The notes under the pieces were generated by a model, which was not told where the DNA came from, made no database searches, and saw only the letters and a list, made by a program, of their open reading frames with translations. DNA of 64,000 nt, taken from an uncultured virus (IMG/VR IMGVR_UViG_3300021473_000001) (taxonomy: Duplodnaviria; Heunggongvirae; Uroviricota; Caudoviricetes). Numbering within the stretch: the first letter of the stretch is position 1; each line of letters opens with the position of its first letter. The DNA lies in the IMG/VR virus record IMGVR_UViG_3300021473_000001. One strand, given 5' to 3'. A program made the translations under genes and the position numbers. This document shows, piece by piece, positions 27,356 to 53,500 of this stretch.

Positions 27356-28651
27356 ATGCTAACTCCAAGGCTTACAAATTGTATAGAGTGTGATAGTATT
27401 CCTACTCTATTGGAAGAGATTAGTTGTACTATAACTAGTATGGCAAAGAGATTATATAACAATACAATCTTTATGCTTAATCTACAAATAGATAGCACTG
27501 GTATGTTTGATCTTTTGAACTACCAAAGAATTTTAATATATAAATATTGTAATCCTGAGTATGCTGGAGAGTTTACAATTCCCATGATTGCCAGTAAAGT
27601 AAGACGATATACATCAGGATCTACACATACAGTAACAACATTTCCTAACACTACAACAACATCTACATCTACATCAACAAGTACTAGTACATCTACCAGC
27701 ACAAGTACAAGTACATCAACAAGTACAAGTACAACAACAAGCACTTCTACATCTACTAGTACATCTACATCAACTAGTACTTCTACATCTACAAGCACAT
27801 CTACAAGTACTAGTACATCTACAAGTACGAGTACATCATCAACCTCTACAAGTAGTTCGACATCAACTAGTACTTCTACTAGTACAAGCACTAGTACTTC
27901 AACATCAACAAGTAGTTCAACAAGTAGTTCAACAAGCACTTCTACATCTAGTACAAGTACATCAACGTCTACAAGTACTTCTACTTCTACATCTAGTACA
28001 AGTACATCAACTACTAGTAGTACTTCTACCACTACTACTAGCACTACCACTACACTTCTAATTACTGAATTTGGATTGTATAATGCTTATGCTCTGCCTA
28101 CAATCGCTAATACAGATTGGCATGTTCCTACTCATTTAGAATATGATGCATTATGTACAGCTGTGGGTGGAGCTGCTACAGCTGCTATACAATTAAAAGA
28201 ATCAGGTACTATTTATTGGAATACTAATAACGGTCTAAATACTTACGGATTTAATGGTAGAGGAACAGGCTATCGTAATAGCACTCCTGAATTTGCAAAT
28301 ATTAAACAAATAGGTATACTTTGGTGTTCTGATCCAAATGGACCAAGTCAATATGCGATGAGTTACGATGATTTTAATCCAGAGGTAACTACTACTGGAG
28401 GGGCATCATATGATACTGGTTTAGGTATACGTTTAGTAAAAGATTCTACAATATTAAATCCAGGAGAAACAAGTACATATGTAGGTAACGATGGTCAAGT
28501 TTATGCTACAATTTGTATTGGTACACAAGAATGGTTATCCCAAGAATTAAAAGAAACAGAATTGATAGATCATACTCCAATTCCATTAGTTCAGGATGGA
28601 CCTACTTGGATTACAATGACTACTCCAGCAAGATGTTATTATGCTACATAA
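27356..28651 (+). CDS. virion protein: N-domain + (TS)n tether + circularly permuted Fib_succ_major-like domain
   Basis: LYN.YA, WHVPT..EY, GF...G.R, G..IRLVKD, then DGQVY.TI.IGTQ.W. Confidence 0.8.
   Translation: MLTPRLTNCIECDSIPTLLEEISCTITSMAKRLYNNTIFMLNLQIDSTGMFDLLNYQRILIYKYCNPEYAGEFTIPMIASKVRRYTSGSTHTVTTFPNTTTTSTSTSTSTSTSTSTSTSTSTSTSTTTSTSTSTSTSTSTSTSTSTSTSTSTSTSTSTSTSSTSTSSSTSTSTSTSTSTSTSTSTSSSTSSSTSTSTSSTSTSTSTSTSTSTSSTSTSTTSSTSTTTTSTTTTLLITEFGLYNAYALPTIANTDWHVPTHLEYDALCTAVGGAATAAIQLKESGTIYWNTNNGLNTYGFNGRGTGYRNSTPEFANIKQIGILWCSDPNGPSQYAMSYDDFNPEVTTTGGASYDTGLGIRLVKDSTILNPGETSTYVGNDGQVYATICIGTQEWLSQELKETELIDHTPIPLVQDGPTWITMTTPARCYYAT
27650..28053 (+). repeat. (Thr-Ser)n coding repeat
   Basis: About 135 consecutive T/S codons with varied synonymous codons. 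Confidence 0.95.
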
Positions 28652-28669: not shown

Positions 28670-29824
28670 ATGAGCTGTCAAAATTGTTTTAATGGATGTG
28701 CTGAGATAGTCTCAGACAGATGTGTTAGATATACAGGGATTGATATCCCTTCCTTAGGAATAAGTACAGGAGATCCTCTTTCTAGTATTGAGCAATCTCT
28801 TTCTACATTTTTGATAAGTGCCCTCAATGGAACAGGCATACATCCTGTAATCGATCCAGATATAATTTGCAATCTGGTTGGAGGATACCTTCCAGTTTGT
28901 GAAGATCCCACAATTGTAGATTTTATAAATGCACTAATTAAAGCTACATGTGATCTACAGGAACAAGTTATAGTACTTGATGAAGCAGTTGCTACAATTG
29001 AAGCAGATTATACTCTTCCAGTAAATTGTTTGGCAGCAGTCATTCCTTCTTCAGGCACACATGACATTCTTCAAGCAGTAATTGTAAAACTTTGTGCAAC
29101 AAGTGCTACATTGACAGCTCTTTCGTTAAGTCTCTCTACAAATTATTCAAGTAATGGTGCTGAACTGGATGCATATATTGCTAACTATTTAGCTACTCAT
29201 GGAGCTAGTACAACATTGATGAGTAATAAAATGATTCCTAATGTAGCATATCCTTATTTTGGAAATATTACAAATTTCAATGCAAATGGTGAAGGAACAG
29301 GAGATTGGATAAAAGTTTATCTCTGCAATGGTTATCTTGGTAAGACTCCTGATATGAGAGGAAGAGTTCCTGTATCTGCAACATATACTAGTATTGGTAC
29401 ACCAATTACAGATCCTGTTGTTCTTCCTGGAGGATTTAATCCTAATTATATAGTAGGAGGACCATTGTATGGTGTTAATTCTATAATTATTGATGCCACT
29501 ACAGTTCCAAATCATACACATACAGCTACAGCCACAGCTTCACAAGCTTCTCACTCTCATTATGAATTTGCTACTAATGCTTATGGTGGTACAAATGCAA
29601 AAGCTACACCTAGTACATATGTAACTGTTTCTAAAGGTTGGAATGGTCCTACATCATATGAATTAGAAGGCAATATTACAACTGCTAGTATAGGAAAAAC
29701 TAATACTGAAATTCCTGCAATCACTGTAAATAGCATAACTATTGCTCCTACAATTAATGGTGGAAATGCTCATTCAAATATTCAACCTAGTATTGCTTCT
29801 TACTACATTATGTATATTCCGTAA
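28670..29824 (+). CDS. tail fibre/spike with tail-collar domain
   Basis: Cys-rich N-term; LCNG...PDMRGRVPV; HTH/HSH motifs; C-term AHSNIQPS....YIM. Confidence 0.8.
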   Translation: MSCQNCFNGCAEIVSDRCVRYTGIDIPSLGISTGDPLSSIEQSLSTFLISALNGTGIHPVIDPDIICNLVGGYLPVCEDPTIVDFINALIKATCDLQEQVIVLDEAVATIEADYTLPVNCLAAVIPSSGTHDILQAVIVKLCATSATLTALSLSLSTNYSSNGAELDAYIANYLATHGASTTLMSNKMIPNVAYPYFGNITNFNANGEGTGDWIKVYLCNGYLGKTPDMRGRVPVSATYTSIGTPITDPVVLPGGFNPNYIVGGPLYGVNSIIIDATTVPNHTHTATATASQASHSHYEFATNAYGGTNAKATPSTYVTVSKGWNGPTSYELEGNITTASIGKTNTEIPAITVNSITIAPTINGGNAHSNIQPSIASYYIMYIP

Positions 29825-29827
29825 ATT

Positions 29828-30226
29828 ATGAAATACAATATAATAGGTGCTTTTGCTGTCCCCACTGAGGCATGTGGATGTAATGATCCATGTAGTACTC
29901 ATTGTATTATATCTGATAATGTAACATATGTTGGACCAAATCTTTCATGTACAGATATACGAAATAATAGTAATCTAACTTTGGCTCTTGAGAAAATAGA
30001 TGCTAAAATATGTGAACTATTTGATATGTATCATAGTCTCACTTGCACACTTGAAGGAAGTGTTTCAGAAATACCAAGTACATCTACAAGTACAAGTACA
30101 TCAACCAGTACTTCTACATCTACAAGTACATCAACCAGTACTTCTACATCAACTAGTTCTACAACAACCAGTACTACAACACCTATACCAGTGTGTGGGA
30201 TAGAGGGTAATGCAAATGAACTCTAA
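29828..30226 (+). CDS. small Cys-rich structural protein with (TS)n and two C-x-I/L-x-G-x-A/V-x-E-I/L tags
   Basis: V.Y.GPNL.C segment resembles N-term of 28670; CTLEGSVSEI and terminal CGIEGNANEL. Confidence 0.75.
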   Translation: MKYNIIGAFAVPTEACGCNDPCSTHCIISDNVTYVGPNLSCTDIRNNSNLTLALEKIDAKICELFDMYHSLTCTLEGSVSEIPSTSTSTSTSTSTSTSTSTSTSTSTSTSSTTTSTTTPIPVCGIEGNANEL

Positions 30227-30260
30227 ATTAATATAGTTAACATTATTAAAAAATAACAAA

Positions 30261-31112
30261 ATGGATATAAATGTAAGATTAACAGCTACTGGTGTAGATA
30301 CAGGACCTACCTTTGAAGTAAAATATTGGGATACTGACACTTCTACTTTTACAGTACTTGCTCCTGCTCAAAGTAAAGCATCATTAATTGCTATAGCTGG
30401 AGTAGATTACCCTGCAATTCCTACCACTGCAACGTTTGTTAGAATAACTTCCATAGGAGTTTGTACAACTCTTATAGATTTACCTATAAATAGTACTACA
30501 ACCAGTACCAGTACATCAACTAGTACAAGTACATCAACCAGTACTTCTACATCAACGAGTACAAGTACATCAACCAGTACAAGTACTTCTACGTCAACAA
30601 GTACTTCCACTAGTACAAGTACTTCTACGTCAACAAGTACTAGTACTTCCACATCAACAAGTACTAGTACTTCCACATCAACAAGTACTAGTACTTCCAC
30701 TAGTACAAGTACCTCTACTAGTACATCAACGTCTACTAGTACAACAACAAGTACAACTACGACTGCTTTACCTAATGAAGTAGCGTTATATCTTAACTCT
30801 TTCACTATTGGAAATCCATTAACTGATAGAGCTAATTATAATTTTGATGTTAAGAATGGTACTGCTAGTAATGAGAATATTAAAGTTAGAGTTTCTAATG
30901 TTACCTTAGGATCAGGAACGACTCTTATAAATTTAGTTCCTTCTGTTTCTACTGCAGGAACTGTACAAAACTATACAGGTATAACATCTACATTTGGTGT
31001 AACAAATATACCTGGAAATACTTTTCTTGTTGAATTTAGTATAGATGGTGGTGTTACATGGGGTGGGATAGTATACTTATCAGCAGCCTCTACGTTTGAT
31101 TATCCAGTTTAA
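30261..31112 (+). CDS. structural protein: N-terminal Cys domain + (TS)n + beta-rich C-domain
   Basis: N-domain alignable with N-term of 39183..40046; about 90-aa TS tract. Confidence 0.8.
   Translation: MDINVRLTATGVDTGPTFEVKYWDTDTSTFTVLAPAQSKASLIAIAGVDYPAIPTTATFVRITSIGVCTTLIDLPINSTTTSTSTSTSTSTSTSTSTSTSTSTSTSTSTSTSTSTSTSTSTSTSTSTSTSTSTSTSTSTSTSTSTSTSTSTSTSTSTSTSTTTSTTTTALPNEVALYLNSFTIGNPLTDRANYNFDVKNGTASNENIKVRVSNVTLGSGTTLINLVPSVSTAGTVQNYTGITSTFGVTNIPGNTFLVEFSIDGGVTWGGIVYLSAASTFDYPV
30492..30763 (+). repeat. (Thr-Ser)n coding repeat
   Basis: TS dipeptide tract with local 24-bp DNA duplications. Confidence 0.95.
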
Positions 31113-31142
31113 AACGTCTTGGTTTGTTGGTTTCCAAGATGT

Positions 31143-31177
31143 CTCCCCCAGGTGTAAGCTTGGGGGAGTTCTTCTTT
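31143..31177 (+). terminator. intrinsic terminator
   Basis: CTCCCCCAGG-TGTAAG-CTTGGGGGAG + TTCTTCTTT; second hairpin just upstream (31114-31142). Confidence 0.75.
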
Positions 31178-31178
31178 C

Positions 31179-31225
31179 TAATCAATCTGATTATAATAAG
31201 TTGTTGTAAATAACCAATTTGATTA
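31179..31225. promoter_or_regulatory. paired palindromic operator-like sites
   Basis: TAATCAATCTGATTA (31179) and TAACCAATTTGATTA (31211). Confidence 0.55.
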
Positions 31226-31307
31226 ATACACTATTGATAAAGTCTTTATAAAAATATATCTTTACTGCAAATTGATCTAAAATTTTTAGTTTAATTAAAC
31301 TGGTAAG

Positions 31308-31814
31308 ATGAAAAAACCTTACGAGAGAGAAAAGAATGCTATTTGTGGCATATATGAAATCTACAACATTATAGATGGTAAAGTATATATTGGACAAGCT
31401 GTAGATATATTTAAAAGAAAAGTTTCTCATTTTAAAATGTTAGAAGAAGATTGTCATTATAATAAACATTTACAAAGAGCATTTAATAAATATGGTAAGG
31501 AATGTTTTAAATTTCAGATACTTGAAGAATGTGAAGAAGTTGAGTTAAATAGTAGAGAAGTTTATAATATAGAAATATTTGATAGTTTTTATACTGGATA
31601 TAATCAGACTTTGGGCGGAGATGGACTAGTTGGTAGAAAATGGAATAGTAATCAACACGATACTATGTCTATAAAAATGAAGGGTAATAGTTATGGAATA
31701 GGAAATAAATCTCATATAGGATTAACTCATCCTCAAGAAATAAAAGATAAAATAAGTAGTTCTCTTTTAGGTAGAAAAAGAGGTAAATATAAAACAAAAA
31801 AAAATGACAGGTAG
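31308..31814 (+). CDS. GIY-YIG homing endonuclease (NUMOD3-like tail)
   Basis: GIYEI.N...GKVYIGQ, HYNKHLQRAFNKYG, GYNQTLGG, H..EIK.KIS. Confidence 0.92.
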   Translation: MKKPYEREKNAICGIYEIYNIIDGKVYIGQAVDIFKRKVSHFKMLEEDCHYNKHLQRAFNKYGKECFKFQILEECEEVELNSREVYNIEIFDSFYTGYNQTLGGDGLVGRKWNSNQHDTMSIKMKGNSYGIGNKSHIGLTHPQEIKDKISSSLLGRKRGKYKTKKNDR

Positions 31815-32529
31815 AGAACTTGTAAGTAGTGTAAGATCAATGCACAAGTTGATCTCCACCGACACATTAATAACAGATCGGGCAATTTTTGCAGAATGTA
31901 AACAAAATGCAATGTTATTAATAAAACGAGAGTTAGATAAAAGAAAACTCTGGGCCACTGATACAGTGTTTACCACTCTACCTTGCTTAGAGATGTGTGA
32001 AGTCTCTATTTCTGAATGTTGTGATTATGTAGATCCCTGTTCCATAGCACGTAGCAAATACAAACTACCACGTATATCTGAAGGAAACTATCAATATGTC
32101 ATTCAAGGTGTATATTCTATAAATGCAATGAGTGGTCAAGGAAAGAAGGTTAAAGAAATCACTATTAATAGATATGCCAATCTTCTAAAACTTCCTATCA
32201 TCAAGAAGGAAGAATACTTCTGGGTTAGTAATGACTATCTATATATTACTAATCCAATGATACAAGCTGTAAGAATTGCAGCTTTATTTGAGGAAGATAT
32301 TCCAAGTGAACTTAGGTATCCTGAATGTGGATGTGGAATTCCTAGTGTTTCAGATGAGGATTGGTGTAAAAATCCTTTAGATAGAGAATCATTTGTTCCT
32401 GGATATCTAGAGAAGCAAGTACTAGAACTTACTTCACAAAAATTACTTAGCACATATTTTAGAATTAAGTCAGATCTTACTCAGGATAACATTGATGGTC
32501 AGGCCCCCAATACACCAAATTTAAAATAA
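31804..32529 (+). CDS. putative ring/tail structural protein
   Basis: 241-aa Cys-containing ORF; crAss-like synteny. Confidence 0.7.
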   Translation: MTGRELVSSVRSMHKLISTDTLITDRAIFAECKQNAMLLIKRELDKRKLWATDTVFTTLPCLEMCEVSISECCDYVDPCSIARSKYKLPRISEGNYQYVIQGVYSINAMSGQGKKVKEITINRYANLLKLPIIKKEEYFWVSNDYLYITNPMIQAVRIAALFEEDIPSELRYPECGCGIPSVSDEDWCKNPLDRESFVPGYLEKQVLELTSQKLLSTYFRIKSDLTQDNIDGQAPNTPNLK

Positions 32530-33006
32530 GTGAGAACTAAGGTTGGTTGGCGAAGTGGAAGTAGAGATAATTACATTAATTTCTGTAAGAATAATATATT
32601 CATAAGACTTACATATGATGAATGGAGAAATATTGTTTATACATTTAATGAATCATTTAGAGAATACATATTAGAGACAGGAGACAAAGCTAAACTTCCT
32701 TTTGGAATTGGTGAGTTTTCTATTAATAAAAAGAAAAGAAAAAAAATAGTTACTCACGATGGAAAAGAGAAGCTTAATCTTCCTGTCGATTGGCAAAAAA
32801 CAAAAGCAAAAGGTAAACTTATATACAATTTCAACTACCATACAGAGGGATTTTTCTTTGGATGGATGTGGTTTAGACAAACTGCAAGATTTAAACATGC
32901 TAATTTCTGGTATTTTAAAGCTTGTAGAAATACTTCCAGACTTTTGTCGCACTATTTAAAAACTAATGATCAGTATCAGCATCTATATAATGAATGGAAA
33001 CATTAA
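32530..33006 (+). CDS. IHF/HU-like protein (GTG start)
   Basis: KLPFGIGEFSI.K; position before tail genes as in crAss-like phages. Confidence 0.7.
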   Translation: MRTKVGWRSGSRDNYINFCKNNIFIRLTYDEWRNIVYTFNESFREYILETGDKAKLPFGIGEFSINKKKRKKIVTHDGKEKLNLPVDWQKTKAKGKLIYNFNYHTEGFFFGWMWFRQTARFKHANFWYFKACRNTSRLLSHYLKTNDQYQHLYNEWKH

Positions 33007-33009
33007 GCT

Positions 33010-33975
33010 ATGTCATACTACTATCGCTACGAATTTATAACACCAGAGATTGTTTATTCAACTGTTAAAGAAGAGTTAAAAAGCTACTTCGATTCGGGAG
33101 CAGTAGATGATCTTATGTTTCCTACCTACTTAGATAAGTGCTTGAGGAAACTTGGTAGATCCTCCTATGTAATATCTGAAGGAGCTTTATGCATTGAAGA
33201 CTTTGAAGCTAGACTTCCAGATAATTTTCATGCTGTAAGAGAAGCTTGGGCATGTACTGAAGAACAAGGTAGACCTTACCAAACACCAAATTCTTTTTAT
33301 TCACAAACTTTCTCTACTACTATTCAGGTATCTCCATTAACAATAGGTGGTAAACCTTGCAATAGTCATCGTTGCCCAGATCCTAATTGTGTAGAGTGTA
33401 TGCCAGAGATAATACAAGCTGTATACAAGACAAATCACTCAATCCCAAGATCTTATAGAAGACAGTATTTACTTAAACCAGGAAATCTCTCTGCAAGAAA
33501 ACATTGTGATGTAGATTATAATAATGCTTGGCAGTTTTATCAACCAGCTCCTGTTATTAATGAGTTTACTCCTGGAGGTGCTGCTCGTGATTCATTTGAT
33601 GTTAGAGATAATAAGTTTGTCACAAATTTCAGATCTGGAATAGTTCATCTTGTATTCTATGCAACAGAATATGATCAGGTAGGTAATCAAATGATTCCAG
33701 ACAACTATCGTGTTAGAGAATATGTAGAAGCATTCATTAAATACAAAGTATTTGAGACTCTTACAAATCAAATAAATGATGAAACCTTTCAACAACTACA
33801 ACAGAAGTTAGTTTATTACAAACAACTTTCTGATGAAGCTTTCATCATGGCCATGATTGAGATTAAGAAGCAAGATGTATATGCAAAGCAAAGAAGGATC
33901 AGACAAGATCTAAATCGTTTCAATATGTATGAACTACCAAATCGTACTAACAGATATGGTAGAAGACGTAATTAA
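33010..33975 (+). CDS. tail tubular/ring protein
   Basis: A.LPDNF, TNF..G.V.L.FY......GN.MIPD; immediately before the muzzle gene. Confidence 0.7.
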   Translation: MSYYYRYEFITPEIVYSTVKEELKSYFDSGAVDDLMFPTYLDKCLRKLGRSSYVISEGALCIEDFEARLPDNFHAVREAWACTEEQGRPYQTPNSFYSQTFSTTIQVSPLTIGGKPCNSHRCPDPNCVECMPEIIQAVYKTNHSIPRSYRRQYLLKPGNLSARKHCDVDYNNAWQFYQPAPVINEFTPGGAARDSFDVRDNKFVTNFRSGIVHLVFYATEYDQVGNQMIPDNYRVREYVEAFIKYKVFETLTNQINDETFQQLQQKLVYYKQLSDEAFIMAMIEIKKQDVYAKQRRIRQDLNRFNMYELPNRTNRYGRRRN

Positions 33976-33984
33976 TTAAGACAA

Positions 33985-36900
33985 ATGGCTGAACAGGAAC
34001 AAGGTAATATAAAACAAGAGTATAATAATGCTACAGTTGGTCTTAACATGGACCAAACTCCTAATCAAATTAAGAAAGGGAGTCTCACATATGCGTTAAA
34101 TGCTGCTGTTGAAAATTTTGATGCTAACGCTGTTAACTATCAAAATGAAGAAGGTAATGAATTTTGTCTTTCATTTCCTAAAGATCTTGTATTAATTGGT
34201 GAACATTTTATTCAAGAGAAAGACAAGCATATTTTCTTTTTAACTAATCCCTATACAGGAGCTAGTCAGATTGGATATATGGATCATAATGATTGTGGCT
34301 ATCATGTTTTAGTAAATGCACCATGTCTCAATTTTAATATTAACTATCCTATTCAAAAGTGTGTTCACAAGATTACAAATTGTGGTACAGAGATATATTG
34401 GACAGATGCACTTAATCCTAGAAGATATCTGGACATTGATGATATTCCTAAAATACTAAAATCAGGAAGTCCTTTTTGTAATCCTGAATTTACAGATGAT
34501 GTAGATTGTAATCAATTGAAGATTCAACCTAATTTCTCTATTCCTTCACTTTTAGTTTCTAATATTGTGTCTGGTGGTAATCTAATCTCTGGAACATATC
34601 AATTTGCTATACAATATTGTGATGGTCAGAGTAATCCATATACATCATACTATTCAATTACAAATCCTACACCTATTGTAGACATTCATATTACTTCCGT
34701 AAATTTTAACTATCCTGTTGGAAAGTCTATTATAATTGATGTAACTAATCTAGATGGTACAGGACAATTTCAATACTTTAATCTTGCTGTTCTTAAAACT
34801 ATTAATGGGATTACTTCTGTAGAACTAGTTGGTACATATTATATTGATGCCATCTCACAACAAATTACCTACACAGGACAAGATGTTAGTACTATCAAGT
34901 TAGCAATCAATGATATCTTTGAAAAGTATCCATATTATGATATTGCTGGAGATGTAACTACTGCTCAAGATATTCTTATTTGGGATGACCTTATTTCTAT
35001 CGACAGGATCAACTATCAACAAATTGCAAGTCAGATTACTCTACAATGGGAAACATGGAGAATCCCAGCTACAGAAAGTTATGCTAATGAAGAAAATGCT
35101 ACAAATCTTAGAGGATATCTTAGAGATGAAATCTATCCTTTTGAAATAGTCTTTTTACTTAAGAATGGAAAACAGACAGATGGATTTCATATTCCTGGAA
35201 GAATCAAAGGTCTTAATGAAATGCTACCTGATGTTCCTGATACAAATTCTGATTTTATTGGAAATCCTGATTATATTAGTGGAGGAGTAGGATATTCTCC
35301 ATATTGGAAAATATATAATACAGCATCTACTATAGGTTATTCACCAACTTATACAAATTCTGCTAGTTATAAAGGACCCTATCAAACTGGTGAATTTGCA
35401 TATTGGGAATCAACAGAAGAATATCCTTGTAATATAGAATTATGGGGAGATCTTGCTGGTCAAAAGATTAGACATCATAAATTTCCTGATGTACTTGTTA
35501 GTCCTATTTTTGAGACAAAAACATTCGTATCTGCTAGTACTATGACTATGGGAAATGATGCAATGTTTCCCATTGGTGTACATGTTGACGCTACTCAAAT
35601 TATCAGACTCATCCAAATGTCATCCTTAACAGATGATCAGAAGGATCAGATTGTAGAGTTTAAAATTGTAAGAGGGGATAGAGGAACCAATAAATCTATT
35701 GTAGCAAAAGGTATTTTAAGAAATGTTGGAGAATATGAAAGAGATCAACAGAAGTATTATTATCCTAACTATCCATACAATGATCTTAGAGAAGATCCTT
35801 TCTTGACAAAGACAAACAATGCATATACTCAACTCTGCAATGTATACAATGTACAACCTACACTACTTGTAACAGATCCTTTAGGTGGTCCTAACTATTT
35901 GGATTATCAATACATGGATTGTAATACAAACATCCAAGGTGTAAAACGACTTACATCTATTGATACTATTGAAATTTGTTCAACATCTGCTCCTGTTATA
36001 TTAAGTCCAGCTACTGGTATAGTAGGACTTGCTAATTATGATATATGGAGAATTAATAATAGTAGTGTTTTTGGAAATGTTACTGTAGGATGGGAAGATC
36101 CTATTATAGGATACACAACATATGAACTTTGTTCTACTGGAATAGGATGTAATAAGAATTTAACAATTAATGTTGTTAGAGGTACTTATCCTCAACGGGT
36201 AGCAGGAGCAGCAACTTTTGATTCTTCATTTATTAGTGCAGTTAATTCTTCTATTAATTGTGGAACAGCTTCTCAACAGCCTGCAGTATCTGATAAACTT
36301 AGACAAATTTTTAATTCTCCAGAGACTTCCTTTGGACAACCTTTTCTAGGAGATATTCTTAAATTAGAAAGTGTTATATATGGATCTGGTAGAGCTCACT
36401 TTACAGAGGTTAAAGATAATGCTAGATATAGACTTATCACAGAAGATGCTCAAAGAAAAGCTCTTGATAGTTCTAATACCATAGGTAATCTAACAAGTCC
36501 ATTTGATGGTACTGCTATGTTTACTACTTATCAAGCATATCTTCAGATATATATCAATGGTATTACCAGACGAAACTTTGCATATTCATTTAATTCAATA
36601 GCTGATTATAATTACAATTCAAGTATTCAAAATAATATTGGAGTAAAACAAAGAACTCTTGATATAGCAAGATACTTAATCCCAGGAGTGCAGAATGTAG
36701 GAGATATTCATGATATTAATAATTACAATCGTGAAAGTTCTATATTCTTAAAAACAGTAAAGGATACTCCTTTTCCAAGTGATAGTCCTAGTATTAATTC
36801 CTCAGGAATTCCTATAGTTACAGACTATTCCAGATTTACTATATCTGAAATAGGTAAATGTAGTATTCCAGGAAATGATACAGATATTAATGTCATCTCC

Positions 36901-39171
36901 TATTATGCTTCTATCAAGAATCAGATAGTTAATCAATGGGGACAGATCTATTCATATAACACTATTGATACAGGGTTTCAAAAACTCTTAGCTAATTCAG
37001 GAGGAGGTACAGTATTTGGTGGTGATACATTTATTGGAAGATTTACATTTAAAACTAAACTTCCATTCTTTATTGGCAATAGAGTTAATGCAGCTGATGA
37101 TAGTGATATATTTTATGATGAGATTGGTAATATTGCCTATCCAAAATATTGGCACTCAGCTAGGTCTATTCAAAAGGATTATATGTCAAATGGTGGACTA
37201 TTATCAAATATCATTTCATACAAAGCTCACAATTTTGATTGCCCTAATAATCTTATAGCTCAACCTATAACTAGTACATCTACCAGTACAAGTTCTACAA
37301 CAAGTACTACATCTACAATATTATCAGGAGAAACTACAAACAGTAATACATTGATGTACTACGATGGATATTTCTATATGTTTGCATATGGTATTCCAAG
37401 TTTCTATTGTGAGAGTTCTTATAATCTTGATCTTCGTCAGGCATTCAATAATAGAGAAGGTGAATTCTGGCCACATGTAAGTTCTGGTATTCCTGATAAT
37501 TGGGTACAAGAAACATTTGTTCCAATTGTTCAGGATAATACATATTACTATAATACTACTTTCTCCAAACAAAATAAAGAGAATATATTTACACATCTTC
37601 CTGTAGATTGGAACCAACCTTGTCATACATATTATCCATTTAGAGCTGTCTATTCTGATCATCAGGAAGGAAACGCTGATTTGAAAGTTAATGCCTGGTT
37701 GTCTTACAGAGCTACTTCTTTATATGACTTTCCACAAAACTTTGGAAAACTTACATCTTTAGATGGAATACAGAATAGAGCTATTCTGGCAAGATTTGAA
37801 AACAAGACATTATTATATGATAACTTGTTAACAATCGATACTAGTAATCCACAAGCTGCATATGTAGGAAATCCAAGATTATTTGAGAATCCTCCTATTG
37901 ATTTTGCTGAAACAGACCTTGGATATATTGGAGCTCAACATAAAATGTTATTAAAGATTCCACAGGGACAGATAACATTAGATGCTAAGAGAGGTCAGAT
38001 CTTTTTAATTGCTGGTAGAGAAGCTGTAGATCTTGCTGGATTTGGATCAGGAATGAATAGATTCTTTACAGACCACCTAGCGTTTGAAATCCTAAGGTAT
38101 TATCCAGAAGTGGATGTTGACAACAACTTTACTGGTGTAGGTCTTCATGGGGTCTACGATTCAAAATATGACAGGGTTATTATTACTAAGTTAGATTATA
38201 TTCCCCATCCTGAATATGCCAGTAGTATTAAGTATAATGCTATAACACGTATTTTCTATTTGGAGGAAAATGTTATAAATTTTGTAAGAAAGACTCCTGT
38301 AGAATTAACAGATGGTACATATTTCTGTAATAAGAGTTGGACACTTTCATATAATATGAATACTAAGAGTTGGATCTCATTTCACTCTTATATTCCTAAT
38401 TGGTATATAGCTGAGAATAATTTCTTCTATTCTGGTCTTAATAATTGTTGTGATGATTTTGAATTTGAATTCATTACAGGAATTCCTGTTCCTAATACCA
38501 CTACAACAACGACAACAACAACGAGTACTTCTACTACCACTTCTACTTCTACGTCTACATCTACTTCTACTACCACATCTACTAGTACTAGTACAACAAG
38601 TAGTACTACTACCACAACTACAACTATATATTGTAATGTAGAAGCATCTAAAGAGTTTCAGAAGGATGATTGTATTCCACCAGAAATTGGTAGTCTATAT
38701 ACTTATACCATTCCACCATGTATATATACATCAATTACTTCTCAGGCAGATGCAGATGCTCTAGCTTGGATAGATATTGCTACAAATGGTCAGAGTCGTG
38801 CAAATTCTTTTGGATACTGTTATACTACTACTACTACTACTACAAGTACTTCAACTAGTACATCTACCTCAACATCAACTAGTACAAGTACCTCAACATC
38901 AACAAGTACCTCAACATCAACAAGTACCTCAACATCAACTAGTACATCTACCTCAACATCAACTAGTACAAGTACCTCAACATCAACAAGTACCTCAACA
39001 TCAACAAGTACCTCAACATCAACAAGTACCTCAACATCAACAAGTACCTCAACATCAACTAGTACATCTACCTCAACATCAACCAGTACAAGTACCTCAA
39101 CATCAACCAGTACAAGTACTACAACATCTATACCAATGTGTGAAATAATTGGTGTAGCAGATGAGATCTAA
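33985..39171 (+). CDS. tail stabilisation/muzzle protein (N-terminal part) with TS tethers, DUF5977-like domain and C-terminal Cys tag
   Basis: GLNMD...ALNA, IYWTD..NPRR..D, IRHHKFPD, FGGDTFI, SWTLSY......WISFHSY.P; FQKDDC...GS...YTS..SQADAD...NGQ..AN..G.C. Confidence 0.82.
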   Translation: MAEQEQGNIKQEYNNATVGLNMDQTPNQIKKGSLTYALNAAVENFDANAVNYQNEEGNEFCLSFPKDLVLIGEHFIQEKDKHIFFLTNPYTGASQIGYMDHNDCGYHVLVNAPCLNFNINYPIQKCVHKITNCGTEIYWTDALNPRRYLDIDDIPKILKSGSPFCNPEFTDDVDCNQLKIQPNFSIPSLLVSNIVSGGNLISGTYQFAIQYCDGQSNPYTSYYSITNPTPIVDIHITSVNFNYPVGKSIIIDVTNLDGTGQFQYFNLAVLKTINGITSVELVGTYYIDAISQQITYTGQDVSTIKLAINDIFEKYPYYDIAGDVTTAQDILIWDDLISIDRINYQQIASQITLQWETWRIPATESYANEENATNLRGYLRDEIYPFEIVFLLKNGKQTDGFHIPGRIKGLNEMLPDVPDTNSDFIGNPDYISGGVGYSPYWKIYNTASTIGYSPTYTNSASYKGPYQTGEFAYWESTEEYPCNIELWGDLAGQKIRHHKFPDVLVSPIFETKTFVSASTMTMGNDAMFPIGVHVDATQIIRLIQMSSLTDDQKDQIVEFKIVRGDRGTNKSIVAKGILRNVGEYERDQQKYYYPNYPYNDLREDPFLTKTNNAYTQLCNVYNVQPTLLVTDPLGGPNYLDYQYMDCNTNIQGVKRLTSIDTIEICSTSAPVILSPATGIVGLANYDIWRINNSSVFGNVTVGWEDPIIGYTTYELCSTGIGCNKNLTINVVRGTYPQRVAGAATFDSSFISAVNSSINCGTASQQPAVSDKLRQIFNSPETSFGQPFLGDILKLESVIYGSGRAHFTEVKDNARYRLITEDAQRKALDSSNTIGNLTSPFDGTAMFTTYQAYLQIYINGITRRNFAYSFNSIADYNYNSSIQNNIGVKQRTLDIARYLIPGVQNVGDIHDINNYNRESSIFLKTVKDTPFPSDSPSINSSGIPIVTDYSRFTISEIGKCSIPGNDTDINVISYYASIKNQIVNQWGQIYSYNTIDTGFQKLLANSGGGTVFGGDTFIGRFTFKTKLPFFIGNRVNAADDSDIFYDEIGNIAYPKYWHSARSIQKDYMSNGGLLSNIISYKAHNFDCPNNLIAQPITSTSTSTSSTTSTTSTILSGETTNSNTLMYYDGYFYMFAYGIPSFYCESSYNLDLRQAFNNREGEFWPHVSSGIPDNWVQETFVPIVQDNTYYYNTTFSKQNKENIFTHLPVDWNQPCHTYYPFRAVYSDHQEGNADLKVNAWLSYRATSLYDFPQNFGKLTSLDGIQNRAILARFENKTLLYDNLLTIDTSNPQAAYVGNPRLFENPPIDFAETDLGYIGAQHKMLLKIPQGQITLDAKRGQIFLIAGREAVDLAGFGSGMNRFFTDHLAFEILRYYPEVDVDNNFTGVGLHGVYDSKYDRVIITKLDYIPHPEYASSIKYNAITRIFYLEENVINFVRKTPVELTDGTYFCNKSWTLSYNMNTKSWISFHSYIPNWYIAENNFFYSGLNNCCDDFEFEFITGIPVPNTTTTTTTTTSTSTTTSTSTSTSTSTTTSTSTSTTSSTTTTTTTIYCNVEASKEFQKDDCIPPEIGSLYTYTIPPCIYTSITSQADADALAWIDIATNGQSRANSFGYCYTTTTTTTSTSTSTSTSTSTSTSTSTSTSTSTSTSTSTSTSTSTSTSTSTSTSTSTSTSTSTSTSTSTSTSTSTSTSTSTSTSTSTSTSTSTSTSTSTSTTTSIPMCEIIGVADEI
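38824..39129 (+). repeat. (Thr-Ser)n tract with near-perfect 18/24-bp DNA tandem units
   Basis: ACCTCAACATCA joined by ACAAGT or ACTAGTACA(TCT/AGT). Confidence 0.95.
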
Positions 39172-39182
39172 ATTAATATGAT

Positions 39183-40046
39183 ATGTCAAAGACGATAATT
39201 ATAAAGCTTACAAAAGCAAGTACTAAAGTTGGTCCTTTCACAATAAATGATGAATGGGGAATTATCATAGCTACTGATGTATCTATACACACTCTTATTC
39301 AAGGTATAAGTTATGAGGTAAACGATAATGTTGAATTAATTACATTAACTTCTACAGGAGATTGTAAGACAGTAAAAACAATGAGTATTACTACAATATC
39401 TCCTTTAGAAATGGTTAACACACCATTTGTATCAACTAGAACAGCTTGTCTGTGGAGGCATTTAGTTAGTAACTCTTTTAATTCTTATTATGGTGTCATT
39501 GCTCCTTATATCATTGAATATCCTATCTCCACTTTACCCAATACAGAGATCCTTCAGAACATCAAAAGTTATGATAAAGTATGGAAATATATACCTGATA
39601 CGACAGGGGTATTTTCTTATACCAGCAAGGTTCTCATTGATAATCAATACTTTAATAAATTAATAATTTATAATAGTCAACAATGTACAGGACTATTAGA
39701 ATTGGTTCCCAAACCAAAAAATAACTTGCAGGCGTACAATGCATATCCTATCTATAAAGCTAATAGCAAGGTTATTATATACACAAAAAGCGATGATTTC
39801 TATCAACTGAATAATTTTGTAGATGCAGTAAAAGACAGAAGTGTTCCAATTGCCATAACCAGTTGTGAGAGCCTTTCCTACGATGGAATATTAAACCAGG
39901 CAAATATGCAATATGGAAACAGAAGTTTTGTAAAAAGTCCTCTTAGAGCGAAAGATTGTAAAATAAGATGGACTCTTGACAACGATAGTTCGATTCACAT
40001 TGTATCTCAACTTATTATAACTTCAAGTCAAATTAGTTATAAATAA
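39183..40046 (+). CDS. N-terminal Cys domain + probable C-terminal part of the muzzle/stabilisation protein
   Basis: LWRH...YYG...PYIIE, FNK.IIYN.QQCTG.L.L after a domain similar to the 30261 N-terminus. Confidence 0.72.
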   Translation: MSKTIIIKLTKASTKVGPFTINDEWGIIIATDVSIHTLIQGISYEVNDNVELITLTSTGDCKTVKTMSITTISPLEMVNTPFVSTRTACLWRHLVSNSFNSYYGVIAPYIIEYPISTLPNTEILQNIKSYDKVWKYIPDTTGVFSYTSKVLIDNQYFNKLIIYNSQQCTGLLELVPKPKNNLQAYNAYPIYKANSKVIIYTKSDDFYQLNNFVDAVKDRSVPIAITSCESLSYDGILNQANMQYGNRSFVKSPLRAKDCKIRWTLDNDSSIHIVSQLIITSSQISYK

Positions 40047-40100: not shown

Positions 40101-40760
40101 ATGAAAACAAGGATCGCTTATGTAGAAGGTAGTAAAATTGGGGAATGTTTATTTATTAAGGACATAGAACCTCAAATTTATTTTAGTAAGAGTAAAGAAA
40201 GATATTTATATAGAAGACAGGGATTGTTTAAATGTGTATGTGGAAAAGAGTTTAAGGCAGTTATATGTAGTTTAAAGAATAGAAATACTAAATCTTGTGG
40301 ATGCTACATGCGATGGAAAACAGGGCAACAAGGACTTAAGAATACAACACATGGTTTACATAAACATCCCTTGTATTATATCTGGTGTGCAATGTTGCAC
40401 AGATGTAATAATGTAAAAAATAAACATTATAAAGATTATGGAGAACGAGGAATCAAATTGTGTGAAAGATGGTGTGATATTAATAATTTTATTGAAGATA
40501 TGTATTTAACATACAGTCCAGGGCTAGAAATAGATAGAATAGATAATGCTGGAAATTATGAACTATCTAATTGTAGATGGATAACAAGAAAAGAAAATTG
40601 TAACAATAGAAGAAGTAATCGAATAATCGAATATAAAGGAGTAATAAAAAATATGAAACAGTGGTCAGAATCTTTAAATATTCCATACAATATATTAATG
40701 TATAGATTAAATAATTGGGGTGTTGAAAAGACATTCACTTCTCAAATATCATACAAATGA
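40101..40760 (+). CDS. HNH-type homing endonuclease
   Basis: C.CG, KSCGC, W..M..RC, YG.RGI..C.RW, EIDRIDN.GNY...NCRW. Confidence 0.88.
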   Translation: MKTRIAYVEGSKIGECLFIKDIEPQIYFSKSKERYLYRRQGLFKCVCGKEFKAVICSLKNRNTKSCGCYMRWKTGQQGLKNTTHGLHKHPLYYIWCAMLHRCNNVKNKHYKDYGERGIKLCERWCDINNFIEDMYLTYSPGLEIDRIDNAGNYELSNCRWITRKENCNNRRSNRIIEYKGVIKNMKQWSESLNIPYNILMYRLNNWGVEKTFTSQISYK

Positions 40761-43526: not shown

Positions 43527-44168
43527 ATGAATTTTAAAACTTGTAAACTTTGTAAGAAAAATTTATCAATTGATAGTTTTTGGAAGAATCCAAGTATTAA
43601 AGATGGTTATTTTAATAAATGTAAAATATGTGCTGCTAAAATAAGAAATATAAACGTTTTAAAAGAACAAAAATATTTAAATGATAATCTTTGGACATGT
43701 TCTACATGTAACATTACACTTCCTTTAACTATTGAAAATTTCCATAAAAGAAATGATTCTAGTACAGGATTTCAACATAGATGTAAGAAGTGTGTAATGA
43801 AAGACCCTCTTAGATATAATAGATATAGTGATAGTGAAAATTTACAACTTTATATAAAAGATATATTAAATGGAATCAAATCAAGATCTCGAACTAAAAA
43901 TTTAAAATTTGAGCTAACTGTGGAATTTTTAATAGATATGTTCAATAATCAAAATGGAGAATGTGCAATTTCAAAAGAAAAAATGACATACATTAGATCT
44001 AAAGGAAGAATACAAACTAATATAAGTGTCGATAAAATTAATCCTTCTTTAGGATATACAAAAGATAATGTACAGTTACTTTGTGTTATAATCAATATTA
44101 TGAAAAGTAATCTATCAATGTCTGAACTAAAACATTTTTGTAATTTAATACTAAAACACAATGACTAA
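43527..44168 (+). CDS. Cys-rich HNH-like endonuclease
   Basis: Two C..C...F......CK.C repeats; Q.G.CAIS, SVDKI....GY.KDNVQL.C...N.MK. Confidence 0.82.
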   Translation: MNFKTCKLCKKNLSIDSFWKNPSIKDGYFNKCKICAAKIRNINVLKEQKYLNDNLWTCSTCNITLPLTIENFHKRNDSSTGFQHRCKKCVMKDPLRYNRYSDSENLQLYIKDILNGIKSRSRTKNLKFELTVEFLIDMFNNQNGECAISKEKMTYIRSKGRIQTNISVDKINPSLGYTKDNVQLLCVIINIMKSNLSMSELKHFCNLILKHND

Positions 44169-50543: not shown

Positions 50544-53500
50544 ATGCCAATCTTTGACAATGAACTTATAAATAATGTTTCGAATCGTGGAGCTGCTCCT
50601 GAAACACCTTATTTAGGATCACCTGATACATTGGAAGTTAATCTTAATCTTAATCCAGTAGAAGGTAGCATGTCTACTCAAACAGACACTCTTAGTAGAC
50701 AAGGTATGTCTATTGATGAGATGTCAAATACAAACACTCCACAAAAAGCTCCTACGTTTAATTCTCCTATGGAAGTAATTCCAAGGTCTGAACTTCTTGC
50801 TAATCAAAAATATCCAATATATCAAAGAGGTGTAGATCTTGAAAATATTTATGGACTACAACAAAGTTGGACTTCTAAACTAGGGAATGGTGTTGTTAAA
50901 ATGGCAGCTACTGGAATTGGTACATTTGCTCAGAGTTTTGCTACAATCCCAAATACTATATCAGCAATTCAGAATGGTAAATTCTCAGAACTATCAGGAG
51001 ATCCTGATGGATTTGAAGGATCTATTGATAACTGGTTAAAAAATATTGAGAATAAGTTTCCTAACTATTATACCAGATATGAAAAACTACATCCTTTTAA
51101 ATCAGCTGTACCTTTTACAGAAGGATCAGCTAATTTCTGGGGAGATATGGTTATTAAGAATCTAGGTTTTACAATTGGTGCGATTGGTGGAGCTTTAGCT
51201 CAGGATGCAATTATTGGAGCATTGACATCAGGAATAGGAACTCCTGCTACAATTAGTTCTCAAGTAGGAAAAGCTTCTTTGTATTTAAACAAACTCTTTA
51301 CAGGAACCAATGATGTTGAGAAAGCTCTTGAGGTAGGAGCAAATCTTGCCAAAGGAACACAACAACTACTTACTGTTCAAAGACTTGGAGAAATGGCTGC
51401 TGTTGTAAAAGTAGGTAGTGCATTACGTTGGGGATTAAATATATATGGATCAGCCAGAACAGAAGCTGGTGTAGAAGCTAGAGATGGATATCGTCAAATT
51501 AAAGAGAACTTAGTTCAACAGTATCAACTTGAACATCCTGGCGAGGATATGACTCCTGAAGAACTTCAGGAAATAGAAAATTATGCTACAGATGGTATGA
51601 ATACCAGGTTTGGTATTAACATGGCTCTACTCACTGTATCTAATGCTATTCAGTTTGATAATCTATTTAGGGCATTTAATAAAGTATCTCCTAAAACTAT
51701 TACTGGTACACTAAGTAAGAAGATAGCTGATGCTGGTAAGATAGGACTTGTAAAAGATTCAATAGATACATTTGAGAAAAAAGTAGCTACTACAGTAGGT
51801 GGTAAGTTGTGGGATACAGTTAAGCCTGCCCTACCCACTATGTTTTCTGAAGGAGTATATGAAGAAGGTGGACAGTATGCTGCTGAACGTGGAACTTATA
51901 ATTATTACACAAGAAAATATAAAGATTTAAAAGATCCAAACAATAGAACAAATTGGGACTCAGTAAATGAAACAGTTAATTCTACATTAACTGGACTAGC
52001 TGATCAATTTGGTACTACAGAAGGTATTCAAAATATGTTCATTGGTGCTATTACAGCTATGATAACTGGTGCTGGAATGAGTGTCATAGATCGTATGGCA
52101 GGTAAAAGTCCAAGTAAAAGACTTGATGCCACTGTAAATATGTTAAATCAACATGGTCTTACAGGAACTCTTGGTGATAAATATACAGATACTCTGACTA
52201 CAGTAGGGATAACAAAAGATATGGAAGATGCTGTCAAAACTGGAGATATCTATAAGTATAAGAATTTAAAACAAGATCTATTTTTCAGTTATGTAACCTC
52301 ACGTATTCCTTCAGGAATGCATGATATAACAATAGATCAACTTAACATGCTCAAAGATCTTAAGAAAGAAGATTTTGAACAGACCTTTGGAATGGATTTT
52401 AATCAGTCAAGTAAGAAAAGTGTAGATAGTTATGTAGACTCACTTATAAATGAAGCGAATAATATTAAAAAGACTGTTGATAGTTTGAATGCTACATTTA
52501 TAAATCCATTTAATTATGATGTGAAAGCTGAGAGTGGTTCACTTGCATGGATTGAAAATCAAAAATACAATACATTTAATTCCTGGAAAACAGATCTTGC
52601 ATATTATGCAAGTGTTGCTCCAAATAATAAAAGTAGAATTGAATCAATTGGTCAAGAATTAATTAAAGTAGATCCTTTACTTAATACAGAGATTCTTTCT
52701 AAAGTTATGAACGCTGAATCTTTGAAAGACTTAATCAAAGATTATGAAGAGCAAGCTAAACAATTAGATGAAGCAATTGCTTTAACTACTATCTATAAAG
52801 ACAAAAAAGTTCTTATCAAAAAAAGTGAAGCATTTCGTAGTATGGCTCAGCGAATTGGTCTTGCTTTAGAAAAAGATCATGATGTAGAGTCATTCACTAA
52901 GATATTAAATTTTGAACTGAATAATCAAGATGCTACACAACCTCCAGTTATTTCTACTGACAAGGCTCTTGATTTAATGATCTATGGTAAGGATATTAAT
53001 AGACTTAATTATCAGAGAGAAACTGCTTCTGATATATATGATAAACTATCTAATAGTGAAGGACTTGACAAATATTTTGAGCAGGCTTTAAAGATGGCTC
53101 AAGAAGTACCAGAAGAAGAAGCAGAAGTTGTTCCTATTAAACATGTGTTTAAAAATAGAGCAGGAGAAGATGAAGAGTTATCACTTGATAGAGAGTATGA
53201 AGCAGAAAAACCTAAAGAGGTTAAACCTGTTAAGTCAGGACAACAATGGAAAGTTACTAATCCTATTACAGGAGTAGCATTAGTTTATCCTACTAAAGAA
53301 GATGCTCAGGATGCTGCTAATGATATAAATGAAAAAGCAACTGCTGCATCTAAAGTAAAGATCATAAAACTCAATCCTGATGGTACTGTAAAGGTAGAAG
53401 ATCAGGATGGAATCATTCGTGATATTTCTTTAGATAAACTGAAAGGCTTTGCAAAGATTCAGACAGAGCAAGAGAAATTAATGAAGGATAAGGAGAGCAT

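Follow-up and report, generated by a model that had tools for sequence, protein, structure and literature searches.

A split muzzle protein and a shared N-terminal domain family in the tail-appendage module of an uncultured crassvirus

Introduction

Within a 64,000-nucleotide (nt) stretch of DNA from an uncultured crassvirus (IMG/VR record IMGVR_UViG_3300021473_000001; the whole stretch is referred to as the window), two adjacent open reading frames (ORFs), ORF C and ORF D, together encode one muzzle protein that is cut inside a loop of 3-5 residues. An extension made of linkers, a DUF5977 domain and a short Cys-containing peptide (the tag) hangs on the upstream muzzle piece, and the downstream piece is headed by a domain of ~72 amino acids (aa), here called DOM. 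A second gene pair of the region 29828-40046, ORF A and ORF B, likewise has a tag at the end of one gene and DOM at the start of the next, and corresponds to a fibre that relatives encode fused or split. The region is the tail-appendage module of the virus, and its structural proteins are beads on Thr/Ser strings that are repeatedly broken into separately translated pieces. We lean towards the reading in which DOM is a putative head that re-attaches such a piece to a scaffold encoded upstream.

An earlier inspection of the DNA (the sequence-only reading) had noticed the two gene pairs and had taken the tag for a beta-strand that completes the domain encoded by the next gene. What it recorded in the window was reproduced: the Thr/Ser runs followed by a 10-aa Cys tag at the ends of ORF A and ORF C, with the coordinates and sequences given below, a third, internal copy, a homologous domain at the start of both following genes, and one Cys in each tag and each domain. 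The function that it assigned to the tag is weighed in the Discussion. Every feature annotated below between positions 27356 and 40760 lies on the plus strand of the window.

Results

The muzzle protein is divided between ORF C and ORF D

ORF C (33985-39171, 1728 aa) contains the muzzle N-part core (33985-38439), which aligns with unsplit muzzles up to '..FFYSGL' and matches both PF25731 (crAss_MUZ; 95.6 bits against a cut-off of 27, E 3e-27) and phrog_37948 (E 5.5e-99). ORF D supplies the muzzle C-part (39396-40046), which was assigned by sequence and fold matches and consists of a low-confidence linker followed by '..TAC-LWRH..'. Aligned to the unsplit muzzle P0001, the ORF C core covers residues 1025-1455 (37% identity, E 6e-86) and ORF D residues 1445-1652 (27% identity, E 5e-21); the alignment of the core ends at residue 1455 and ORF D takes over at ~1461. 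Seven closer unsplit muzzles are 1501-1727 aa long, the six strongest being 41-51% identical to the ORF D C-part, and in the three unsplit muzzles inspected the junction reads 'FYSG', 3-5 residues and 'W.H', without DOM. Two GenBank phages have single-ORF muzzles, one carrying the annotation 'muzzle protein', whose C-terminal ends match ORF D residues 72-285. The muzzle of the window is not one continuous polypeptide: its two ORFs lie in different frames with stops between them.

The AlphaFold2 (AF2) model of ORF D, with a predicted local distance difference test score (pLDDT) of 68.8, has the muzzle of phicrAss001, gp44, as its best structural match. Residues 95-282 of the model superpose on gp44 residues 1242-1370 (Z 8.2, root-mean-square deviation (rmsd) 2.8 Å, 125 residues), and the C-part includes the equivalent of the C-terminal ~130 residues of gp44. 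This relation is visible through fold comparison only, a PDB sequence search with ORF C and ORF D having returned no gp44 match. The available text of Bayfield et al. (2023, PMC10172136) names insertions as the source of varying muzzle length and describes disulfides as stabilising the tail; the IG2/crass insertion of gp44 is placed there at residues 318-1021, which precedes the region matched by ORF D.

Searches returned 350 ORF D-like proteins, the best 120 of which are 285-305 aa long at 99-100% coverage, and 439 relatives were found in viral contigs. The 350 conserved ORF D-like proteins mean that the split is fixed in the lineage.

The extension of ORF C (38440-39171) runs from NNCC..FEFEF to the tag and the stop. 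It comprises a first Thr/Ser linker (38497-38625), the DUF5977 domain identified with Pfam (38629-38820, ORF C residues 1549-1612), a second Thr/Ser linker (38824-39129) and the C-terminal tag CEIIGVADEI (39139-39168), so that the protein ends in ...TTTSIPM-CEIIGVADEI-stop. A further run of 16 Thr/Ser residues lies within the muzzle core itself (37270-37317), where the unsplit cyanophage muzzle is unrelated in sequence.

Cysteines covary across the muzzle break

In all 32 distinct muzzle N-parts a Cys occurs within 20 residues after the core, in 24 of them as 'CC', and a Cys directly precedes [LVI]W.H in 36 of 47 distinct ORF D homologues. Among 33 distinct pairs the two features go together without exception, 'CC' being paired with a Cys before LWRH (24/24) and a single Cys with its absence (9/9). 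The number of Cys residues after the core equals that in the N-terminal part of ORF D, comprising DOM and the junction, in 32 of the 33 pairs; unsplit relatives lack Cys at both places. In the window, 'CC' on one side goes with Cys before LWRH on the other (NNCC.. and ..TAC-LWRH).

This covariation points to inter-chain disulfides at the muzzle split itself, one of which would probably link the DOM Cys with the base of the extension instead of the distal tag. The same pattern could alternatively reflect bonds between neighbouring subunits. For phicrAss001, the available text of PMC10172136 documents disulfides that connect tail proteins.

DOM is a large family of N-terminal Ig/FN3-like domains

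DOM opens ORF B (30261-30494) and, as residues 1 to ~71, ORF D (39183-39395). The two domains are only weakly related by direct BLASTP (E 0.03). Of 478 six-frame segments of the window, a profile built from 102 sequences from outside it picks out these two alone (ORF D, E 1.2e-15; ORF B, E 1.6e-11). Both ORFs thus qualify as DOM proteins by profile match, by position at Met1 and by the invariant Cys, which in ORF B is the sole Cys among 283 residues.

The family is large: a profile of 9 sequences, searched against 1.84 billion proteins at E <= 0.001, matched 2021 cluster representatives. Of the best 150, 149 have the domain starting at residues 1-6 and the remaining one has it from residue 24; none has it internally. 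We further gathered 145 DOM genes from 84 sources, in 142 of which the ATG is profile position 1, with at most 37 open codons upstream. DOM is missing from Pfam and PHROGs: compared with Pfam-A and with PHROGs, 104 members gave no match at E <= 0.01. An ESM Atlas search returned viral hypothetical clusters only. Across 104 aligned sequences, Gly47 and Cys68 are invariant, the Cys lying near the last hairpin; mean column identity is 62%, while the heads vary, and none of the columns conserved to at least 90% is Lys or Glu. Two subtypes, type I and type II, can be distinguished; the DOM of ORF B is type I-like, and that of ORF D is of the ORF D type.

AF2 predicts ORF B residues 1-78 as a six-stranded sandwich (pLDDT 88.6, predicted template modelling score 0.74) from an alignment of 9 sequences only, and a confident model alone does not prove a complete fold. 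With DOM alone, Foldseek returned nothing at E <= 0.001. VIA fold comparison gave tied, generic matches at Z 5-6.7, among them the C-terminal domain of a type 9 secretion system (T9SS) substrate, FN3 domains and SpyCatcher; the SpyCatcher rows (Z 5.5-5.8) are tied with the FN3 rows, and the DOM model has its six strands without a partner.

The best non-muzzle match to ORF D residues 4-70 (39192-39392) is the T9SS substrate domain, 8gl8_D (Z 6.7, rmsd 2.4 Å, 65 aa), which comes from a Flavobacterium translocon complex and is tied with FN3 (6.0). The hosts of crassviruses are Bacteroidota. We treat the likeness as a lead only, and an identity of DOM with such a C-terminal domain fails on position, DOM being N-terminal in 142 of 145 genes.

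Other observations concern the range of DOM proteins. 'Tiny' DOM proteins (83-104 aa; for example L086 7665-7916, L089 3799-4056 and L098 6903-7184) extend beyond DOM by a few Thr and two or three further residues only and have no cargo; they are the sole DOM gene in tagless loci. In L006 (3111-6713), two tandem DOM genes follow a Fib_succ_major-like linker protein in a neighbourhood unlike the crassvirus tail module, so DOM may extend beyond that lineage.

The tag is a conserved motif of scaffold proteins

The tag is a conserved Cys motif of 10-12 aa that is found on scaffold proteins, namely fibres and the muzzle extension, in 1-4 copies at borders between anchor and linker or between two linkers. 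Its canonical form is C-x-F-T-G-x-A-N-E/Q-L, mostly followed by Pro; a second variant, with position 3 occupied by Leu or Ile, is seen in muzzle extensions and in the window. Alternative codons are used at the fixed residues of 45 distinct canonical tags (Phe as TTT in 31 and TTC in 14; Leu as TTA in 18 and CTT in 15), and therefore the peptide is what is conserved.

A strict regular expression, written after the window copies had been seen, recovers 3 copies in the window, which is above chance (200 shuffles gave a mean of 0.14 and at most 1). Applied to the first 86 sources it recovers 84 copies, of which 74 are internal and 10 lie no further than 3 residues from the C-terminus; a DOM gene comes next after all 10. 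With a slightly looser motif, 125 matches fall in called plus-strand ORFs (245,521 residues) as opposed to one in 109,623 minus-strand control residues; relaxation also produces an evident chance match in the portal protein at 19389. Among 53 distinct tag-bearing proteins, 52 have no DOM, and the remaining one, a DOM protein of L019, resembles a chance match.

In the fibre-3 proteins of relatives, 1-3 tandem tags stand directly after the '..NQL.ICCP' end of a heptad-like segment and ahead of the linker; the label 'coiled coil' for that segment is a reading of its sequence only. Fibre 2 also has tags between two linkers, a context remote from folded parts that accounts for 15 of 80 tag contexts. 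The order 'linker, tag, end' is seen in 2 cases among the distinct tag-bearing proteins, both from the window itself.

Tag-like repeats and unusual gene ends were also seen in relatives. The muzzle extension of L003 (1309-1470) has four tandem tag-like repeats, CALEGTGEII, CDLDGTGIIL, CKLIGEGDVL and CILIGEGETF, which directly follow the first linker and precede ~700 residues of further domains. Many structural proteins stop within a Thr linker plus 2-4 residues (..TTTTTTTLP, ..TTTTTTIP, ..TTTTLSPG), for example in L094 (4134-5996) and L093 (6700-7245), which is an odd place to stop.

A fibre encoded fused or split in relatives is the counterpart of ORF A and ORF B

ORF A (29828-30226, 132 aa) is a fibre-3 scaffold piece whose N-terminus is homologous to the fibre-3 proteins of relatives. 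It is laid out as a 72-aa N-terminal anchor, a first tag, a Thr/Ser linker (30077-30181, residues 84-118), a second tag and the stop. The first tag, CTLEGSVSEI (30044-30073, assigned by motif match), lies at the junction of folded anchor and linker, which is the typical tag site in relatives; the second, CGIEGNANEL (30194-30223), ends the protein as ...TTTPIPV-CGIEGNANEL-stop. ORF B (30261-31112), recognised by the DOM profile and an AF2 model, consists of DOM, a Thr/Ser linker (30492-30764) and a head of ~115 aa. Compared with a phage collection, the DNA of 29828-31112 gave no match.

The two states of this fibre can be compared directly in relatives. L098 carries a 124-aa head covalently on the linker of fibre 3 itself, whereas fibre 3 of L086 ends after its tag (99 aa) and the head is carried by the next-encoded, DOM-headed protein; the two heads are 71% identical (E 4e-57). 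In the syntenic locus L005 an ORF A/ORF B pair is present in which the first gene has neither linker nor tag. Together with the muzzle split, the L086 and L098 heads support the suggestion of the sequence-only reading of a system with split proteins and exchangeable domains on tethers, which here are Thr/Ser-rich.

The two tagged gene ends of the window are related to each other at the DNA level. A cassette of 65 nt, comprising the linker end, the tag, the stop and 8 nt beyond it, is 80% identical between 30170-30234 at the end of ORF A and 39115-39179 at the end of ORF C, 52 of its 65 nt being common from the last linker codons onwards. After the cassette the similarity stops, and the DOM-coding parts are unrelated at the DNA level. 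Within the window, exact occurrences of the 11-mer TAAATTAATAT are limited to the two tag-gene stops, which are separated from the following ATG by 34 nt (ORF A to ORF B) and 11 nt (ORF C to ORF D). The linker-tag-stop cassette was copied between the ORF A and ORF C ends in this genome, and the two terminal tags are therefore not independent events.

Tag and DOM in relatives

We sampled loci around DOM or fibre-3 genes, and some contigs were fetched twice. A DOM gene stands right after a tag-ended gene in 11 of 145 cases and after another DOM gene in 58. Of 80 ORF D homologues, 4 (~8 by a looser reading) lie behind an ORF with a terminal tag, and 37 of 52 muzzle N-parts have no tag at all. A general pairing of tag and domain across gene boundaries is not supported.

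At the level of the locus, the presence of tags follows the number of DOM genes. Across 106 sources, no tag is present at loci with a single DOM gene (0 of 41); 48 of 52 loci with two DOM genes and all 11 with three carry tags. After filtering, 92 loci comprise 54 that have a tag and at least two DOM genes, 37 that have neither, and 1 that has two DOM genes without a tag. Type I DOM occurs in both settings (58 in tag-bearing, 46 in tagless loci), whereas type II occurs 68 times in tag-bearing loci and never in tagless ones. A tree of the fibre-3 N-terminus has 12 changes of tag state on the best tree, 3 of which are forced by well-supported branches.

Two further comparisons were set aside as evidence. 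Among distinct linker-bearing proteins, a Cys within the last 10 aa is found in 67 of 105 directly upstream of a DOM gene as compared with 74 of 177 others; this enrichment is confounded by family membership and unusable. A complex prediction of ORF A (132 aa) with the DOM of ORF B, run without controls, gave scores of 0.15 and 0.04 against a mark of 0.32 and speaks neither for nor against binding.

Neighbouring genes of the module

Genes for terminase, portal and major head protein are present in the window. On viral metagenome contigs, relatives share the order 187-aa protein, fibre 1, ~370-aa protein, fibre 2 and fibre 3, followed by 1-3 DOM-headed genes, ring protein 2, ring protein 1 and muzzle. 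In the window, a fibre-like protein (27356-28651) consists of an N-terminal part, a Thr/Ser linker of 135 aa (27650-28054) and a Fib_succ_major head (PF09603, E 1e-10), and serves as a context example of the beads-on-a-string design. The next gene (28670-29824) encodes a tail fibre or tail protein, assigned by a match to the tail protein family phrog_8763 (E 1.9e-8) and by synteny with the ~370-aa '..YYI.YIP' gene of relatives. Beyond ORF B follow a GIY-YIG homing endonuclease gene (31308-31814, family match) between the fibre block and ring protein 2, then tail ring protein 2 (31804-32529; PF25702, E 6.1e-15) and tail ring protein 1 (33010-33975; PF24228, E 4.7e-9).

An HNH homing endonuclease gene (40101-40760, family match) is inserted 3' of ORF D. 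Its last six residues, SQISYK, are also the last six of ORF D (within 40020-40046), with different codons, and its stop overlaps the start of the following gene (40757). In L003 the ORF D homologue ends at 4867, which is the start of that next gene, the two directly abutting. Judging from these shared gene ends, the HNH gene seems to have entered ORF D at its 3' end, bringing with it a recoded version of the ORF D terminus. Further free-standing endonuclease genes within the structural module are, besides the GIY-YIG gene, an HNH gene at 17476-18051, between terminase and portal, and an endonuclease VII/HNH-like gene at 43527-44168. An open reading frame of more than 4485 codons (50544-63998) extends past the end of the window. 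A Pfam scan of 25 further window ORFs found no glycosyltransferases among them.

Discussion

How might the pieces be held together? We regard DOM as the putative attachment head of separately translated pieces. In such an arrangement the heads of fibres would be held through DOM, and the lone DOM Cys would lock the attached piece by a disulfide; the two muzzle pieces would be held by the native muzzle fold and by Cys residues on either side of the break, the distal tag having no part in this. We give less credence to a role of the tag as partner: as a scaffold-side short linear motif it is possibly an extra docking peptide for DOM proteins, chiefly those of type II. More doubtful again is the wider proposal that an abundant, uncultured crassvirus lineage uses a natural peptide-domain docking system in which Cys tags and anchor-end Cys motifs are the sites and DOM is the receptor. 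Under this proposal the disulfide of the DOM Cys would form once the particle has left the cell, and recombination in linker DNA would allow essential tail proteins to be split and receptor-binding heads to be swapped or multiplied.

Several observations weigh against a docking role of DOM and of the tag. Forty-one loci have DOM without any tag and 37 of 52 muzzle N-parts are tagless, so the tag cannot be DOM's general partner. Tags and type II genes adjoin each other, and physical linkage within a single recombining block may be all that lies behind the joint presence of tags and additional DOM genes; well-supported branches offer only 3 independent contrasts, all concordant (p 0.25), and the loci were sampled through DOM or fibre genes with some contigs duplicated. 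The Cys covariation at the muzzle split could reflect two clades rather than repeated events. A docking-head role leaves the tiny cargo-free DOM proteins (83-104 aa) unexplained, and the DOM fold, a generic sandwich with tied rows at Z 5-7, is uninformative on function.

The main rival explanation is that the tag is an inter-chain staple, a knot of oligomerisation or disulfides in trimeric fibres and in the hexameric muzzle, and is functionally unrelated to DOM; DOM proteins would then attach elsewhere, for instance to the fibre-3 anchor or coiled coil or to the muzzle core, and the adjacency in the window would stem from conserved gene order and from cassette copying by recombination in (TS)n-coding repeats. 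We consider this account rather unlikely. It agrees with the position of most tags, in 1-3 tandem copies after the heptad-like '..NQL.ICCP' end, with the existence of DOM without tags, with the Cys parity, which puts the likely partner of the DOM Cys at the base of the extension and not at the distal tag, and with the cassette copied between both gene ends. Yet the tags between linkers (15/80) and the linker-ending tags of the window suit a docking peptide better, type II DOM occurs with tags without exception among 117 type I and type II DOM genes from both kinds of locus (68/68, against 0 of 46 for type I), and tags are never on DOM proteins save for 1 doubtful case in 53. An improbable alternative makes DOM an outward-facing Ig-like binder of a host surface glycan or protein, a role that has been put forward for numerous Ig-like domains of phages, the pieces being fixed by other parts. 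The generic Ig/FN3 fold, with the Bacteroidota T9SS substrate domain 8gl8_D as best non-muzzle match (Z 6.7), and the tiny DOM-only proteins would fit such a binder; the position of DOM at the extreme N-terminus (142/145) with variable heads at the far end of the linker is instead the usual polarity from anchor to tip, ORF B has no other candidate anchor, DOM is highly conserved (62%) while heads vary, and the lone invariant Cys is consistent with an intermolecular bond.

The strand model of the sequence-only reading, in which the C-terminal tag would complete the domain of the next gene as a donor strand or in the manner of tag and catcher and so rejoin split proteins, appears quite improbable to us. 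It does account for both tag/DOM pairs of the window, for the DOM gene after each of the 10 near-C-terminal tags, for the alternating, strand-like pattern of the tag sequence, for the SpyCatcher complexes and strand-swapped FN3 domains among the generic fold matches of DOM (Z 5.5-5.8) and for the one conserved Cys per side. That the domain needs the tag as a strand is not borne out by the model of DOM, which is predicted to fold alone with pLDDT 88.6, and against a regular pairing of tag and domain stand the counts for DOM genes (11/145), ORF D homologues (4/80) and single-DOM loci (0/41), the 74 internal tags among 84, often in tandem, and the tagless ORF A/ORF B pair of L005. The 10 of 10 adjacency itself arises because the order from fibre 3 to DOM is conserved and the loci were chosen through DOM; the two terminal tags of the window are copies of one cassette, and DOM lacks the conserved Lys and Glu that an isopeptide bond would call for. 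DOM thus folds alone in silico and is in part found in tag-free loci, two findings that run counter to the strand model, and the tag as the missing strand of DOM is unsupported. We find it hardly credible that the gene pairs are joined in expression by frameshift, read-through, bypass or splicing into a single polypeptide. The short gaps of 34 nt and 11 nt and the conservation of TAAATTAATAT at both stops might suggest it, but the frame changes differ (+1 from A to B, -1 from C to D), the downstream frame is closed by stops immediately ahead of each ATG, the gap ahead of ORF D homologues varies from -1 to 29 nt after unrelated upstream ends, the ATG is profile position 1 in 142 of 145 genes with no internal domain in the best 150 family members, and the gaps are far too short for an intron. 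A split intein was also considered, on account of the tag Cys and of the Asn-Ser/Thr after the domains (..LPIN|S in ORF B, ..MVN|T in ORF D). An N-intein starts with Cys, a C-intein has a terminal Asn with Ser/Thr/Cys next to it, and inteins have a block B TxxH motif and a HINT-sized fold; here tag and domain total ~87 aa, the residues after DOM are not conserved family columns, and the candidate was ruled out by the absence of His from the ORF B domain, the Ig-like fold and the mostly internal position of the tags.

Crassviruses are among the most abundant phages, and the assembly and diversification of their fibres are poorly known. Defined here are the DOM module with its 2021 representatives, the short motif of the scaffold and a fixed split of the muzzle, at which the Cys covariation predicts specific inter-chain disulfides. 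If it is true that DOM docks, this would explain the exchange of receptor-binding heads and would provide a small natural protein-protein, possibly peptide-protein, coupling pair. In the literature on crassvirus muzzles, fibres, branched receptor-binding proteins and Thr/Ser linkers, surveyed with supplementary files outside its scope, we found no such tag, domain, split muzzle or Cys covariation; the Extended Data of PMC10172136 could bear on muzzle variants.

Several known systems share parts of this design. The small DOM sandwich, its SpyCatcher matches and the short tag invite comparison with coupling in trans. In SpyTag/SpyCatcher, which derives from a split CnaB2 domain, and in donor-strand complementation of the chaperone-usher pathway, a small beta-sandwich and a peptide come together in trans. 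SpyCatcher complexes are among the PDB matches of DOM (Z 5.5-5.8), but DOM is without conserved Lys/Glu and is predicted to fold alone, and the tag is mostly internal and often absent. Unlike in donor-strand pilins, the donor is not always available here, 41 single-DOM loci being tagless and 76 of 80 ORF D homologues following an end that is not a tag. The cellulosome, with cohesin and dockerin, has a scaffold with repeated docking sites and Thr/Ser/Pro-rich linkers, and one docking module per cargo. The resemblance, in that tag and DOM are kept on different proteins (52/53), is an analogy of design only, as there is no homology; the scaffold site here would be a peptide of 10-12 aa and the cargo module would be Ig-like, and the Ca-binding repeats of dockerin are absent.

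Comparable in design are the branched receptor-binding complexes of other phages. Phage G7C reportedly builds one from gp63.1 and gp66 through an N-terminal module. In CBA120, according to the available text of PMC8825819, TSP1-4 are separately encoded receptor-binding proteins that attach to one another or to a scaffold by dedicated N-terminal modules and have exchangeable distal heads, as would be the case here. The domain family differs from that of CBA120 and G7C, whose docking domains are not among the Foldseek or VIA rows listed for DOM, and the system described here is marked by flexible Thr/Ser tethers, by a short peptide motif that the scaffold carries and by a single conserved Cys. 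A function of the tail tip is also divided between separate proteins in the nozzle of the Pseudomonas podophage A1002, an unrelated phage, as stated in the available text of PMC13730344. The nearest likeness of the muzzle itself is with gp44 of phicrAss001 (PDB 7QOK/7QOL), through the crAss_MUZ match in ORF C and the fold match in ORF D. The insertions of gp44 are placed by the available text of PMC10172136 in its crass and IG2 domains, not at the site of this split. Whereas gp44 is one chain, here the loop is cut, an extension is borne on linkers at the end of the first piece, and an N-terminal domain has been added to the second.

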